This document shows positions 12,765 to 60,824 of a DNA stretch of 64,000 nucleotides, piece by piece. The DNA lies in the NCBI RefSeq assembly GCF_053078305.1, contig NZ_CP166879.1; one strand, written 5' to 3'. Below the pieces are notes generated by a model. That model had not been told where the DNA came from. It worked only from the letters and a program-made list of their open reading frames with translations, and did not search any database. Numbering within the stretch: position 1 is the first letter of the stretch; each line of letters begins with the position of its first letter. The translations under genes and the position numbers were made by a program.

Positions 12765-13691
12765 ATGAATTATTCTTTAAAACAATTAAAGGTTTTCGTC
12801 ACAGTAGCGCAGGAGAAAAGTTTTAGTCGTGCAGGAGAGCGTATCGGCCTGAGCCAGTCGGCAGTGAGTCACAGTGTGAAGGAGCTGGAAAATCATACTG
12901 GTGTTCGCCTGCTGGACAGAACCACGCGTGAAGTGGTGCTTACAGATGCAGGGCAGCAGTTGGCTTTGCGTCTTGAGCGACTGCTGGATGAACTTAACAG
13001 CACGTTGCGCGATACCGGGCGTATGGGGCAACAACTGAGCGGAAAAGTTCGGGTCGCTGCCAGCCAGACCATTTCCGCGCATCTTATTCCGCAATGCATT
13101 GCTGAAAGCCATCGCCGCTATCCAGATATTCAGTTTGTCCTGCACGATCGTCCGCAGCAGTGGGTGATGGAAAGTATTCGCCAGGGAGATGTCGACTTTG
13201 GCATCGTCATCGATCCAGGCCCAGTGGGCGATCTGCAATGTGAAGCGATTCTTTCCGAGCCTTTCTTTCTGCTTTGCCATCGCGATAGCGCTTTGGCCGC
13301 GGAAGATTATGTACCCTGGCAGGCATTACAGGGAGCGAAATTGGTGTTGCAGGATTACGCGTCAGGCAGCCGACCGCTGATTGACGCAGCGCTGGCGCGC
13401 AATGGTATTCAGGCGAATATTGTGCAGGAGATTGGACATCCGGCGACGCTGTTCCCGATGGTAGCCGCAGGCATCGGCATCAGTATTCTTCCCGCACTGG
13501 CGCTACCATTGCCTGAAGGTAGCCCACTGGTGGTAAAGCGCATTACGCCGGTTGTTGAACGCCAGTTGATGCTGGTGCGCAGGAAGAACCGTTCACTTTC
13601 CACCGCCGCTGAAGCGTTATGGGACGTGGTACGAGACCAGGGCAATGCGCTAATGGCTGGGCGGGAAGGGGATCCGTTGTATCAGATATAG
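12765..13691 (+). CDS. yfeR: LysR-family transcriptional regulator YfeR
   Basis: 308 aa; N-terminal HTH ([35 protein letters not shown]) plus substrate-binding domain. Confidence 0.85.
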
Positions 13692-14023
13692 ATATCGATA
13701 TGAGTCGTATTTTCAACAGGATTTAGAAGGGATACATTCAGAGACAAACGCTGCTCTTTCTCCTGCGCCTTTTCTGCCTGCTGTCTCTGCAACTGCGCCA
13801 GTTGTGTTTCCAGTAGGGTGACTTGCTGTTGAATCAATTCGGCCTGTTTTTGCTTGTCTTCAGCACTGCCGCTAGTGTCTACAATCTCTTTAATTTGTTG
13901 AGTGAGTTTGATGATTTGCTGACTTATCCGCGCGATTTGTGAAGCAACATCGCTACCTTGTGATGCCCTGTTACTACTCTGTGTTTGTATGGAAGGAATT
14001 GAAGTTGAAGAGATAGTGGCCAT
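13682..14023 (-). CDS. FlxA-like small protein (Q-rich coiled coil, C-terminal ...HIDIYI)
   Basis: 113 aa ORF with GAGGA RBS 7 nt upstream of ATG; composition and C-terminus resemble FlxA family; overlaps yfeR 3' end by 10 bp on the opposite strand. Confidence 0.5.
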
Positions 14024-14051
14024 TGTTCAGTCCTCGTCACTGTACGAGGTA

Positions 14052-14078
14052 ATATCGGTAGAAGAACAAGGAACTTGA
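14052..14078 (-). promoter_or_regulatory. putative sigma-28 (FliA) promoter upstream of FlxA-like ORF
   Basis: On minus strand TCAAGTTC-N11-ACCGATAT versus consensus TAAAGTTT-N11-GCCGATAA, about 28 nt upstream of the start codon. Confidence 0.35.
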
Positions 14079-14110
14079 GAAGAAAAATCAATCTTACAAA
14101 TCGCAGATAG

Positions 14111-14139
14111 CAAAAAAGCGCCTTTAGGGCGCTTTTTTA
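14111..14139 (-). terminator. rho-independent terminator of the Val-Val-Val-Lys tRNA operon
   Basis: aaaaaaGCGCCtttaGGGCGCtttttt hairpin immediately 3' of tRNA-Lys. Confidence 0.7.
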
Positions 14140-14141
14140 CA

Positions 14142-14217
14142 TTGGTGGGTCGTGCAGGATTCGAACCTGCGACCAATTGATTAAAAGTCAACTGCTCTAC
14201 CAACTGAGCTAACGACC
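14142..14217 (-). tRNA. lysV: tRNA-Lys (anticodon UUU)
   Basis: Reverse complement reads GGGTCGTTAGCTCAGTTGGTAGAGCAGTTGACTTTTAATCAATTGGTCGCAGGTTCGAATCCTGCACGACCCACCA. Confidence 0.95.
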
Positions 14218-14221
14218 CGAA

Positions 14222-14297
14222 GTGGTGGGTGATGACGGGATCGAACCGCCGACCCCCTCCTTGTAAGGGAGGTGCTCTCCCAGCTGAGCTAATCACC
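14222..14297 (-). tRNA. valY: tRNA-Val (anticodon UAC)
   Basis: Reverse complement reads GGGTGATTAGCTCAGCTGGGAGAGCACCTCCCTTACAAGGAGGGGGTCGGCGGTTCGATCCCGTCATCACCCACCA. Confidence 0.95.
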
Positions 14298-14344
14298 CAC
14301 TTCGGTACTTCACATTTTTACAAGAAATTTAGCTGGTGAGAAAG

Positions 14345-14420
14345 TGGTGGGTGATGACGGGATCGAACCGCCGACCCCCTCCTTGTAAGGGAGGTGCTCT
14401 CCCAGCTGAGCTAATCACCC
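14345..14420 (-). tRNA. valX: tRNA-Val (anticodon UAC)
   Basis: Identical 76-nt tRNA-Val sequence, second copy. Confidence 0.95.
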
Positions 14421-14464
14421 ACTTCTCAATTTCTTGCTACACGGCGGAGACTACATAAAGTAGT

Positions 14465-14540
14465 TGGTGGGTGATGACGGGATCGAACCGCCGACCCCCT
14501 CCTTGTAAGGGAGGTGCTCTCCCAGCTGAGCTAATCACCC
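14465..14540 (-). tRNA. valU: tRNA-Val (anticodon UAC)
   Basis: Identical 76-nt tRNA-Val sequence, third copy; first gene of the operon on the minus strand. Confidence 0.95.
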
Positions 14541-14798
14541 CCGCTGTGTGGAGTCGCATTATAGGGAGAGTTCAAAATGAGTCAACGCATTTTCTAAAGA
14601 AATTGTTCGTTCGTCGTAAATTTAAGCAAGATGATCGCAAAACAGACTGTGTTGCGCAATTTGTCAACGAAAACAATAATGCGTAAGGTTGCAACCCGAA
14701 CTACATTGAGGAATCAGGCGGGAGTGATAGAATATCGCCCACTCAATTTTTCCAGGATTTGCCGGTTGTCGGCATCTTTCTAAACGTAAGGCCATTTC

Positions 14799-16214
14799 AT
14801 GAAAATCAAAACTCGCTTCGCGCCAAGCCCAACAGGCTATCTGCACGTTGGCGGCGCGCGTACTGCTCTTTACTCCTGGCTTTTTGCACGTAACCACGGC
14901 GGTGAGTTCGTGCTGCGTATTGAAGACACCGATCTTGAGCGTTCCACGCCGGAAGCTATCGAAGCCATTATGGATGGCATGAACTGGCTGAGCCTGGAGT
15001 GGGATGAAGGTCCGTACTACCAGACCAAACGTTTTGATCGCTACAACGCAGTGATCGATCAGATGCTGGAGGAGGGCACTGCTTATAAATGCTATTGCTC
15101 TAAAGAGCGCCTGGAAGCGCTGCGCGAAGAACAAATGGCGAAAGGTGAGAAGCCGCGTTATGACGGTCGCTGCCGCCACAGTCATGAGCATCACGCTGAT
15201 GATGAGCCGTGTGTCGTACGTTTTGCTAACCCGCAGGAAGGTTCTGTTGTTTTTGACGATCAGATCCGTGGTCCGATCGAGTTCAGCAACCAGGAGCTGG
15301 ATGATCTGATTATCCGCCGTACCGATGGTTCCCCAACCTATAACTTCTGTGTGGTTGTCGATGACTGGGATATGGAAATCACCCACGTTATCCGTGGCGA
15401 AGACCATATCAACAACACGCCACGCCAGATCAACATTCTTAAAGCCCTGAAAGCGCCGGTACCGGTTTACGCGCACGTTTCTATGATCAACGGCGATGAC
15501 GGCAAAAAACTGTCCAAACGTCACGGGGCAGTCAGCGTAATGCAGTATCGTGATGACGGTTATTTGCCAGAAGCACTGCTGAACTATCTGGTGCGTCTGG
15601 GCTGGTCCCACGGCGATCAGGAAATCTTCACTCGTGAAGAGATGATCAAATACTTCACTTTGAATGCCGTCAGCAAATCTGCCAGTGCGTTCAACACCGA
15701 CAAGTTGCTGTGGCTGAACCATCACTACATTAATGCGCTGCCGCCGGAGTATGTTGCTACTCACTTACAGTGGCACATTGAGCAGGAAAATATCGATACC
15801 CGTAACGGCCCGCAGCTGGCTGATCTGGTGAAACTGCTGGGCGAACGCTGCAAGACGCTGAAAGAGATGGCACAGAGCTGCCGTTATTTCTACGAAGATT
15901 TTGCTGAGTTCGATGCCGATGCCGCGAAAAAACATCTGCGTCCGGTAGCGCGTCAGCCGCTGGAAGTAGTTCGTGACAAACTGGCCGCGATTACTGACTG
16001 GACAGCTGAAAACGTTCATCACGCTATTCAGGCGACGGCGGATGAGCTGGAAGTGGGTATGGGTAAAGTTGGTATGCCGCTGCGTGTCGCCGTAACCGGT
16101 GCGGGGCAGTCTCCGGCACTGGATGTTACCGTTCACGCAATCGGTAAGACACGTAGCATTGAGCGTATCAACAAAGCGCTGGCCTTTATTGCTGAACGCG
16201 AAAACCAGCAGTAA
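14799..16214 (+). CDS. gltX: glutamyl-tRNA synthetase
   Basis: 471 aa; class I aaRS HIGH motif ([13 protein letters not shown]) and KMSK (KLSKR); divergent from tRNA operon. Confidence 0.95.
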
Positions 16215-17239: not shown

Positions 17240-17315
<76 letters not shown>

Positions 17316-17354
17316 AATTTTGCACCCAGCAAATTTGGTACGTAAACGCATCGT

Positions 17355-17430
<76 letters not shown>

Positions 17431-17469
17431 AATTTTGCACCCAGCAAATTTGGTACGTAAACGCATCGT

Positions 17470-17545
<76 letters not shown>

Positions 17546-46265: not shown

Positions 46266-49200
46266 TTAGTCATTTTGTTGACAGAAAACAGCAATCTCCT
46301 GGTCCAGCTCTGCAATGTGTTCTTTTACAGAGTTCAGCAACTGAAGAATTTCAGGTTTACTGTCATCTGAAACAGGTGTTATTTCTAACTGATGGCTAAT
46401 ATTAATCAACTTTTGCAAATTCAGGATGTTAGCCGCACCGTGGATGCGATGAATACATTGATGGAAAGTTCTGTTATCGCCAGCTTCTAGTGCATGAAAC
46501 GCAGCGGGTAGATCTTTATGGGTTTCATGCTGGAAAGTCATGAGAATCTCCTGCATCAGTTGTAGATCGTTCGCCGTATTATTTTTCAGGGCTTCGATAT
46601 CAAGGTGGCGATACTGAGGTGCAATATGCACAACCTGGTGTAACTGACTTAAATGTGTTTTCAGTACATCCAGGGTCAACGGTTTGAACAAACATAAGTT
46701 CATGCCGCAATTTAACCCTTTTTCACGTTCGTTAGCCTGTGCGTTGGCTGTAAGCCCCCAGATGGGTAAGGACGAATTTTGCTCACGGAGTTTGCGAGTC
46801 AACTCAAAACCATCCATATTCGGCATATTAACGTCAGTAATAAGCAGATCATAATGTTGCATACTGACTTTGTGTAACGCTTGCACACCATCAGTGGCTT
46901 CGTCAACATCATATCCTAATAGATTTAGCTGGCGTTTGAGTAATAGCCTGTTGGTCGGATGATCATCCGCGATTAATATGCTCAACTTTTCAGGTAGTGT
47001 GATAGGTTGTTCTGCTTTTGCCTCGACAGCCGCCACTTGTTGGGTAATTTCTACCGGGATTGTGATCGTAAATGTTGTTCCTATGCCTGGATGACTTTCT
47101 AATGACAAATCACCCTGCATGTTTTTAATTAATTCTTTGCAGATCATTAAGCCTAAACCAGAACCTGTTTGCTGACGACCTGCACTTGTTTGGCTATAAC
47201 GTTTAAACAGTTGTTGTTGTTCTTCCTGTGATAATCCACTTCCAGAATCCATAATCGTCATTTTGATTACAGCGTGGTTGTCATCAATGTGAACCAGGGA
47301 GGTCGTAATTTTTACTGCCCCCTCGGTGGTAAATTTGAGAGCATTGCTCAGTAAATTAGATAAGACCTGCTTAAACGCCTGAGGGTCGATCTTAACCAGG
47401 TAATGTTCAGGAAACGTACTGCTGCAACTTAATGCGATCGATTTGCTTGCAGCAATCGCACCGAAAGAGTGACAAGTGTTCTGGACTAAAGTAGGGATAT
47501 CGACCCATTGTGGTTGAAGTTGATAGTTACCCGATTCAATTTTGTCGACATCAAGGATTTCACCAATTAAGCCGAGGAGTGATTGTCCGGTGGCGTAGGC
47601 AAGTGAAATCGCCTCCACACGTTGCTCCTTGCTAAGACCAGAACCCGACAGAAGTTCCAGGAAGCCCATAATGGAGCTAATTGGTGTTCTTATTTCGTGA
47701 CTCATTGTTGCCAGAAACTGGCTTTTTGCGACAGTTGCATTGATCGCTTTATTTCTCTCTACTTCGAGTGCATGAATTAAATCACGCGTCTCGGTAATAT
47801 CTTGCCAACCACAAATATAAACAGCATGATCGCTGGCTGGCAGATTGCATAATGTATGCCAGTGATTAATGCATCTTTTCTCGATGCCATTATCAATTTC
47901 AAATACCTGTGTGTATATTGTTCGATTTTCTTTCGTTTCTGCTGTGACTTCATGCGCATTAGAAAAAACATCTTTAAAGGGGGAGTCACTGTTTTCTAAT
48001 GGTAACATTGCATTTTTGTAGTAATCCGCAGTGAAATAATGTTCAAAAGCACTATTATGACTAATGACATTACCTTGCCAGTTTACAACATAAGTTGGAT
48101 TCGGTAAGGAATCCGAGAGTGCTTTCCGGAATGATATTTGGTTTTCTAAATCACCCTGAATGACTTTACGACGACGAACTGAGCGTAACAGGTAGAATCC
48201 CCATAAAAGGCTACTGCCAACTAATAAAACGGATAATGTCGTAACAATATAAAATTGCTCGCTATAGAGGTCCCATGTGTCAATGGTCACATTGGGCATT
48301 TTAATCCATTTTTCGGTCAGGCGCAGAACTTCGCTTGGGGGGATTGCATTCAGTGCTTTATTAATAATATCCTTAAGTTCCGGTTCTCCGCGAGGAAAAG
48401 CGAACGAAAGCGATGCATTCGGAACGCCGGGAATAAGAAAATGATAAAGTTCATTAGGATAGTAATGGTCGATCATGTAACGTGAATTTAACTGTGTCGC
48501 GACCAGAGCATCAAGTTCGCCTTCCTTGACCTTGTGAAATGCAGCGCTGGCGTTATCGACTTTTATCCACTCTACCTCCGGATACATCTCTTTTAATTGC
48601 GAATGAAGCTCATAATAATATGGAATGGCAACTTTCATTCCTTTTTTTAATGTTTGTTCACTGTCAGGCGCTTTTTGCATGACAAAAACGTAAGGCGTTG
48701 TTATGAAGGCTTCAGCAAATAAAACATTATTTTCTCTATCTTCACTATAAATAGCACCGGGTAATATATCCCATCCGCCGGGATTCAGCTGTGTTCCAGC
48801 ATGGATATTGTGTGAAACGGTGATCGGAGAAAAATTTAAACCTGTTTGCAAGGTAATAATATTAAGAATGTCCCCCATAACGCCCCGAACCGAGCCATTT
48901 TCATCCGTCATAGAATAGGGGGGCGAGTAAGGATTTTCCAGCACCTTTAAATCGGGATGCTGCTTAATCCACTGTTTTTCATGTTCAGTGAGTTCTAATG
49001 GTTTGTTCAGAAAGGCCAGGTTTCCTGTATCAAGCCAATTTTGTGATACTTCATAGCGAACTTCATTTGTCAAAGCATCAACAAATCGATTGAGTACTTC
49101 ATTAAGAACGACAGATTCTTTTCTGGTCAAGAAAAAATTATATTGACGCGGTGAGTTATAATATTTCACTACATTTAAGGAGTGAGTGAAATAGCGGGAA

Positions 49201-60383: not shown

Positions 60384-60824
60384 ACGTAAACTTTTTCCGG
60401 TTGTTGTCGATATCTCCATATCCTTCAACCGGAAAATAATAATACTAAAATGCTTAGCCCTGCTAATAATCGCCTAATCCAAACACCTCATTCATGTTCT
60501 GGTACAGTCGCTCAAATGTACTCCGGATACACGGTTCGCTGATTTCCAGGACATTGTCGTCATTCAGCGACCTGTCGCGTGTATCACGGGCCTGCGAATT
60601 CATCAAGGAATGCATTGCGGAGTGAAGTATCGAGTCACGCCATATTTCGCTATCAGGATTCTGTGTGATGGTTACATCGCCCGGCCCAAGGCTGTTTAGT
60701 CATCAGCGCTTTCTGACAGTGCTGAGATTTCAACCTGTTGCAGTAAAAATGAGTAGATATAGGGCAAGTGTGCTGCCAAACCCATCGTTTACGGGATGAA
60801 GGTAGATTTGGTTTGAAGGGTATC

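Follow-up and report, generated by a model that had tools for sequence, protein, structure and literature searches.

What stands between yfeR and the Val/Lys tRNA operon in bacteria that lack the genes found there in K-12? The question is raised by a 64,000-nucleotide (nt) stretch of contig NZ_CP166879.1 (assembly GCF_053078305.1), the whole of which is called the window here. In this interval the window has a single small open reading frame (ORF). A sequence-only reading of the window had proposed that this ORF encodes a FlxA-like protein, that it is preceded by a promoter for FliA (sigma-28), and that it sits where K-12 carries yfeN and xapABR. We consider it likely that the gene is a chromosomal orthologue of the FlxA family (PF14282), that it is driven by sigma-28 as a class 3 flagellar gene, and that it was replaced by the xap block in K-12.

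The ORF list places the gene at 13682..14023 on the minus strand, with an ATG start and 113 codons. Its product ends in THIDIYI and, as the sequence-only reading had described, is rich in Gln and encoded convergently with yfeR, with which the gene has 10 bp in common (13682-13691). These last 10 bp of yfeR double as the 3' end of the FlxA-like gene and supply its residues YI and the stop codon. The protein has a mass of 12.5 kDa, an isoelectric point of 5.3, and a composition of 18% Gln and 12% Ser. A check of sequence composition found no hydrophobic segment, signal peptide, or membrane segment. In RefSeq, the PGAP name for the same ORF is "FlxA-like family protein" (WP_000201414.1 and variants). 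In O157:H7 Sakai, the gene is ECs_3279, with the gene name "flxA" and the product "hypothetical protein". The existence of the gene and its family assignment are already known and routinely annotated. The earlier reading had asked whether the ORF is routinely annotated with a known function; the annotation is indeed routine, and the name comes without an attached function.

A profile search bore out the FlxA identity. In Pfam-A, the protein matched FlxA (PF14282; E 3.2e-13, 50.1 bits), with residues 15-92 aligned to positions 4-82 of the 101 in the model, and its other matches in that database were coiled-coil noise. NCBIfam gave only weak coiled-coil noise, and no curated family for the protein was found there. 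A HMMER search of 1.84 billion cluster representatives found 78 relatives at E<=1e-3, which have the coiled-coil core and the C-terminal motif in common; one FlxA-type cluster representative was 41% identical over 110 aa. A word-indexed protein search returned 8 matches. The relatives are about 100-120 aa long and have an M-T-T-I-type start, a Ser/Thr/Gly-rich N-terminal stretch, a core resembling ASQIxRItxQIxKLTqQLKe..., and the C-terminal motif [IV][DN][IV]Y[IV]. The FlxA-like protein has the size, the Gln-rich coiled-coil core, and the C-terminal motif of this family, the last in the form IDIYI. In an alignment of 27 sequences, Y112 was kept at >=90%, and the C-terminal motif was present in nearly every member. 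Two 159-aa proteins from Logan assemblies, P0001 and P0002, are variants of the Escherichia coli gene in which one A is missing from a GAAAAT run near the 3' end. This frameshift removes the IDIYI tail and prolongs the ORF antisense into yfeR; the variants may be real frameshift alleles or assembly errors.

The founding member of the family is FlxA of K-12 (b1566), which is encoded in the Qin cryptic prophage. By BLASTP, it is 42% identical to the FlxA-like protein over a core of 74 aa (E 4e-12). The two proteins belong to the same Pfam family, are of similar size (110 and 113 aa), and both end in I-D-I-Y-[IV], with GTIDIYV at the end of the K-12 protein. The two genes also share a layout of sigma-28 promoter, leader of about 22-27 nt, and strong Shine-Dalgarno sequence. 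The K-12 flxA promoter was found by chromatin immunoprecipitation sequencing (ChIP-seq) of FliA as the site TAAAGATT-N11-GCCGATAG, 22 nt before the ATG (PMC4183435). When fliA was deleted, expression of K-12 flxA fell from 280 to 2 (PMC4183435), and an independent study found it to be 28-fold lower without fliA (PMC1935009). The name of the gene goes back to this dependence on FliA. flxA was still listed as uncharacterised in 2024 (PMC11551758). The K-12 gene differs in that it is prophage-borne and has its own terminator, whereas the FlxA-like gene lies on the chromosome, keeps its synteny from genus to genus, overlaps yfeR, and lacks a terminator of its own. FliA dependence is experimental for K-12 flxA, whereas for the FlxA-like gene it is predicted only.

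The distribution of the gene was determined with a peptide-pattern scan, which was built from a 10-sequence alignment and applied to one genome per species. At least 53 loci were found, and 52 were analysed, with the neighbours at each locus placed by tblastn and ARAGORN. The loci listed include Pseudocitrobacter, Kluyvera, Pluralibacter, Buttiauxella, Enterobacter, Leclercia, Lelliottia, Cedecea, Yokenella, Kosakonia, Siccibacter, Superficieibacter, Atlantibacter, Phytobacter, Citrobacter amalonaticus, Winslowiella, and others; no conclusion can be drawn from the fact that Salmonella, Klebsiella, and other Escherichia species are not among the loci listed. Nearly all 52 loci, from about 20 genera, have the order gltX, Val/Lys tRNAs, FlxA-like gene, convergent yfeR, yfeH, and ligA, and the FlxA-like gene abuts or overlaps yfeR. 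Since the same order is found in nearly all loci, the gene is native to this site across the Enterobacteriaceae. It is the vertically inherited, ancestral occupant, and the K-12 arrangement is derived. The ORF is intact in about 50 genomes from about 20 genera, at 102-127 aa. The ratio of nonsynonymous to synonymous substitution rates (dN/dS) was about 0.17 against Pseudocitrobacter faecalis, Kluyvera genomosp. 1, and C. amalonaticus. Against most other genera, synonymous sites were saturated and protein identity was still 40-60%. Judged from these alignments, the ORF is a protein-coding gene under purifying selection.

One locus stood apart from the others. In an uncultured Pseudocitrobacter genome bin (L004, 756-1097 and upstream), the FlxA-like gene was 93.6% and the promoter region 91.6% identical to the window at the DNA level, and the synonymous divergence (dS) of the gene was 0.10. 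On the same contig, ligA, yfeH, and yfeR were 80-89% identical. These values suggest that Escherichia and a lineage of Pseudocitrobacter recently exchanged only this small cassette, unless the contig was mis-binned.

Within E. coli, the locus is found in two arrangements. The K-12 order had been given as yfeN and xapABR between yfeR and the tRNAs, and comparison with a K-12-type genome bore this out; the full order is yfeR, yfeN, xapA, xapB, a DUF1427 gene, xapR, an RtT repeat, and lysV. The counterpart of the 404-bp variable segment of the window is about 4.4 kb in the K-12-type genome (L002, 2603-7000). At the left breakpoint, identity with K-12-type DNA ends at 13692, one base past the yfeR stop. 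At the right breakpoint, the two sequences agree again from CAAATCGCAGATAGC (14097), directly ahead of the lysV terminator. The sequence-only reading had described the ORF as sitting in place of an absent 4 kb or so. The site was right; the ORF is not, however, a displacer of xap but the ancestral occupant. What may be a trace of the older state persists in K-12-type genomes. The C-terminal motif runs into the yfeR frame, which contains its final two codons and the stop (Y I *), and K-12-type genomes retain those exact bases, the remainder to be expected had the gene been removed up to the yfeR stop.

A Megablast comparison of 5,426 complete E. coli genomes found the segment in 1,307, always between yfeR and tRNA-Lys, and the xap-type block at >=80% coverage in 4,066. 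Because the two sets together make up 99% of the genomes, they represent two alternative states of one locus. Among E. coli genomes, FlxA-like alleles diverge by as much as 3.3%. The yfeN-xapR block falls into two deep haplotypes, with 2,435 genomes >=99% identical to K-12, 1,642 at 90-95%, and almost none between, and the divergence of these haplotypes is far above that of the flanking genes. O157:H7 carries the FlxA-like gene, in an allele with Q43H and D110G, the latter within the conserved IDIYI motif; its yfeR is annotated as a pseudogene with an internal stop. An extra RtT-like repeat and a duplicated terminator lie between the variable segment and lysV in K-12-type genomes and in some genomes with the FlxA-like gene. 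The window has a single copy in this region (14097-14142, compared with L002 7000-7200).

The promoter was examined with a FliA weight matrix of 28 columns, for which the 52 ChIP-seq sites tabulated by Fitzgerald 2014 (Table 2; PMC4183435) were used. The site that had been noticed upstream of the ORF as a match to the FliA consensus is present exactly as described: the whole site, TCAAGTTC-N11-ACCGATAT, occupies 14052-14078 on the minus strand, 27 nt before the ATG. It scored 15.5 bits and ranked 2 among the 127,946 positions of the window (background mean -20, standard deviation 8). Compared with the leave-one-out scores of genuine FliA sites, it would be 21st of 52. The core pattern T.AAGTT-N13-CCGATA has a single exact occurrence in the window, and with <=1 mismatch it has 2, as against 0.22 expected from shuffles. 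Very similar sites are found in K-12 promoters that are both bound and regulated by FliA, namely flgKL (TCAAGTCC...GCCGATAAT), modABC (TCAACTTC...GCCGATATT), and ycgR (...ACCGATAAA) (PMC4183435). The sigma-28 promoters of the non-structural class 3 genes ycgR, yhjH/pdeH, ynjH, and yjdA-yjcZ score comparably to that of the FlxA-like gene.

The same site is conserved in the orthologues. When 250 nt upstream were searched at each locus, the best FliA-matrix site lay 24-32 nt before the ATG in 49 of 52. Scores of at least 14 bits were reached by 44 of these 49 sites (mean 17.3) and by 0.1% of 1,918 random 250-nt segments from the same loci. Across 47 distinct orthologous sites, the GCCGATA columns were 98-100% conserved and the TCAAG block 66-98%, compared with 34-68% for the spacer. 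This pattern is a textbook phylogenetic footprint, of the kind that a sigma-28 promoter leaves. Chance does not account for the site, which keeps its distance from the start codon in nearly all loci while the spacer is unconserved. The FlxA-like gene is, on this comparative evidence, very probably sigma-28 dependent and class 3. The first position of the -10 element is A in the window allele and in its closest RefSeq match, as compared with G in O157:H7 and 98% of orthologues, so that O157:H7 has the consensus GCCGATAT in place of ACCGATAT. ACCGATA is likewise found in two FliA-bound promoters of K-12, those of ycgR and fliDST (PMC4183435).

Other signals around the promoter bear on how the transcript would begin and end. 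The intrinsic terminator of the valU-valX-valY-lysV operon is strong (-19.1 kcal/mol, z -4.9) and is common to the window and K-12-type genomes. About 30 nt separate it from the sigma-28 -35 element downstream, and it insulates the FlxA-like gene from tRNA read-through. No sigma-70-like site was found between this terminator and the ATG. The good ribosome-binding site that had been noted, GAGGA, is present and can pair within a hairpin. The 5' arm of this hairpin is probably at or before the sigma-28 start site, and the structure may be complete only in RNA that reads through from the tRNA operon. It is stable in E. coli (z -2.8) and Pseudocitrobacter (z -2.1) and has no counterpart in other genera. 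Masking of the Shine-Dalgarno sequence was considered as a feature of the family and was rejected, since the mean z was -0.4 and only 6 of 45 values were below -1.5. Downstream, no intrinsic terminator was found on the minus strand after the FlxA-like stop anywhere within yfeR. The other genera do not have room for one either, and the tight tail-to-tail arrangement with yfeR is conserved. As the gene has no terminator of its own, a FliA-driven transcript would run antisense into the 3' part of yfeR. A search of 13400-14800 against Rfam found nothing besides tRNAs. The positions of these features are collected in Table 1.

Table 1. Positions in the window of the FlxA-like gene, its signals, and the adjoining genes
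Feature	Position	Strand	Basis or remark
FlxA-like coding sequence	13682..14023	minus	ORF list, Pfam, PGAP, AlphaFold2 model, dN/dS, composition
Shine-Dalgarno sequence GAGGA	14031-14035	minus	7 nt before ATG; AGG/GAGG block at the same place in orthologues
Hairpin CCUCGU-ACAGUG-ACGAGG	14032..14049	minus	pairs with Shine-Dalgarno sequence; -8.6 kcal/mol, z -2.8
Sigma-28 -10 element ACCGATAT (predicted)	14052-14059	minus	weight matrix, orthologue conservation
Sigma-28 -35 element TCAAGTTC (predicted)	14071-14078	minus	11 nt upstream of -10 element
Variable segment, 404 bp	13693..14096		junction comparison with K-12-type genome
Intrinsic terminator of valU-valX-valY-lysV operon	14110..14140	minus	13-bp stem, U tract
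yfeR, LysR-type regulator	12765..13691	plus	convergent with FlxA-like gene
tRNA-Lys and three tRNA-Val genes (valU-valX-valY-lysV operon)	14143-14540	minus	followed by gltX on the opposite strand

The shape of the protein was predicted with AlphaFold2, using the 27-sequence alignment. The mean predicted local distance difference test (pLDDT) score was 68, with 80-88 in the helices. In the model, residues 1-23 are disordered, a helix at 24-49 and another at 54-99 are joined by a four-residue turn into an antiparallel hairpin, and the tail with IDIYI is disordered. No significant structural neighbour emerged when PDB sequences were searched by profile and the model was compared by Foldseek; the matches were all coiled coils and helical hairpins of a designed or generic kind (best E 0.29). 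Because the structural matches are generic only, the structure gives no functional lead. One of the top Foldseek matches, to the FliJ homologue CdsO, was considered as a functional clue and set aside, as its E value was 0.33 and generic designed coiled coils scored equally. FliJ/CdsO-type hairpins, FlgN, FliT, and the secreted anti-sigma factor FlgM are, like the FlxA-like protein, small, helical-hairpin or disordered proteins of the flagellar regulon. They have no sequence similarity to it, however, and resemble it in shape alone. For YcgR and PdeH, roles related to cyclic di-GMP are known, whereas the FlxA-like protein lacks a recognisable functional domain. Going by the model, the most defensible description would be a small binding protein of the late flagellar regulon, which most likely acts through binding a partner protein and not as an enzyme.

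The favoured explanation can be put as a series of steps. Downstream of the Val/Lys tRNA terminator, FliA (sigma-28) polymerase would start at the predicted promoter and produce a monocistronic mRNA with a short leader. Translation directed by GAGGA would then yield a soluble 12.5-kDa protein. As a class 3 gene, it would be turned on late in flagellar assembly, after FlgM export. The two helices of the protein are predicted to pair as an antiparallel hairpin, flanked by an N-terminus that is disordered and Ser/Thr-rich and by a hydrophobic, conserved I-D-I-Y-I tail. In the ancestry of K-12, the yfeN-xapABR block took the place of the gene, right up to the yfeR stop codon.

Several points weigh against this explanation. 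The A at the first -10 position could make for a weaker promoter than that of most orthologues, and many good FliA sites in K-12 are bound by FliA without a measurable effect on transcription (Fitzgerald 2014, PMC4183435). No paper mentioning 'FlxA-like' or ECs3279 was found in the searchable literature, and plausible EDL933 tags likewise gave nothing relevant. The literature search also found no transcript, protein, or expression data for ECs_3279 or its orthologues. With a model of only moderate confidence and no significant structural neighbour, the biochemical role of the protein is unconstrained. The sites bound in K-12 without such an effect also favour the possibility that the sigma-28 match is not a working promoter and that expression comes instead from the highly transcribed tRNA operon, by read-through, or from a sigma-70 promoter that escaped recognition. 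The gene does lie directly downstream of valU-valX-valY-lysV on the same strand, and the 5' hairpin that pairs with the Shine-Dalgarno sequence may be complete only in the longer RNA. The terminator between lysV and the promoter speaks against read-through, though, and the lack of a visible sigma-70 site between terminator and ATG speaks against the other route. Neither would account for the conservation of the sigma-28 elements alone upstream of the gene in about 20 genera, and we regard such expression as highly improbable. A different doubt concerns the ORF itself, which is short, of low complexity, frameshifted in some assemblies (P0001), and changed from Asp to Gly at a conserved C-terminal position in the O157:H7 allele. 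A non-functional remnant or chance reading frame could look like this, yet its length, start codon, ribosome-binding site, and C-terminus would not be expected to be conserved across genera, nor would it have a dN/dS of about 0.17 and a significant Pfam match. This idea is scarcely credible and, as far as the comparative data go, already contradicted.

Another possible explanation is that K-12 has the ancestral order and that a foreign or prophage cassette, recently acquired, displaced yfeN-xapABR. The location of flxA in the Qin prophage would fit, as would the match of the protein to phage family PHROG 11044 (E 1e-7). The xap-type genomes are the majority and contain two deep haplotypes, and the 93.6% identity to one Pseudocitrobacter bin, against 80-89% for the flanks, hints at some horizontal exchange. 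However, the gene is at the same lysV-yfeR site in about 20 genera and has diverged in step with its neighbours, E. coli alleles show up to 3.3% divergence, and a tblastn search of 50,697 phage records found no match. The codons of the C-terminal motif inside the yfeR frame, with their bases kept in K-12-type genomes, also oppose a recent arrival. A foreign origin is very unlikely in our view. The last alternative would extend the sigma-28-driven, ancestral gene favoured here and does not contradict it: the FlxA-like protein may itself be a late substrate of flagellar type III export, like FlgM, and act outside the cell or as an export-coupled regulator. Its N-terminal 23 residues are predicted to be disordered, are Ser/Thr-rich, and begin with the conserved M-T-T-I, and it has neither a Sec signal peptide nor a membrane segment. 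K-12 FlxA rose in a culture exoproteome alongside FlgK, FliD, FliC, FlgL, and FlgM (PMC6391000). It was also described as showing "opposite regulation" of protein and mRNA at 42 C, where the export apparatus fails (PMC6551532). However, cytoplasmic CheY and metabolic enzymes are listed in the same exoproteome table, so the FlxA signal is explained equally well by lysis together with class 3 induction (PMC6391000). The text of the 42 C study does not give the direction of the protein and mRNA changes (PMC6551532), both data sets concern the prophage paralogue, and no export signal is recognisable from the sequence. We regard export of this protein as unlikely and the idea as speculative. It is quite unlikely that FlxA-family proteins as a whole are a conserved, overlooked class of small type III export substrates in Enterobacteriaceae that are made only after hook completion, leave through the flagellum as FlgM does, and use IDIYI as a handle; on this reading, the antisense run of the unterminated transcript might in addition couple motility to the yfeR regulator.

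K-12 flxA is among the most strongly FliA-dependent genes of E. coli, yet it has been regarded as an oddity of a prophage. The family also has an orthologue on the chromosome, whose sigma-28 promoter is conserved, in about 20 genera of enterobacteria and roughly one quarter of E. coli (O157:H7 among them), which argues that the FlxA family truly belongs to the flagellar regulon and is kept there by selection. Because the native copy in K-12 was lost to the xap genes, K-12 is a poor background for finding the function of the family. As far as we found, the conserved sigma-28 promoter, the ancestral position, and the replacement by xap in K-12 are new. They are unsurprising extensions of what is known of flxA, and current models are unchanged by them.

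Three further observations were made elsewhere in the window. The best FliA-matrix site of the whole window is TAAACTTTTTCCGGTTGTTGTCGATATC (60387-60414, plus strand), which scored 22.8 bits, equal to the top real class 3 promoters. It lies 4 nt after the stop of a gene for a cscB-like oligosaccharide transporter of the major facilitator superfamily and points toward the torI end of a prophage; on the same strand downstream, there is no ORF of >=60 aa before about 61290. The site TCAACTTCAACCACAATGGGTCGATATC (47496-47523, minus strand) is identical to the intragenic FliA ChIP-seq site in K-12 evgS (PMC4183435), and its score is not independent, as the evgS site is in the training set of the matrix. 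Finally, three tandem tRNA-Ala(GGC) genes were found at 17240-17545 on the plus strand, whereas the K-12-type genome, the closest RefSeq match, and O157:H7 Sakai have two (alaX and alaW).

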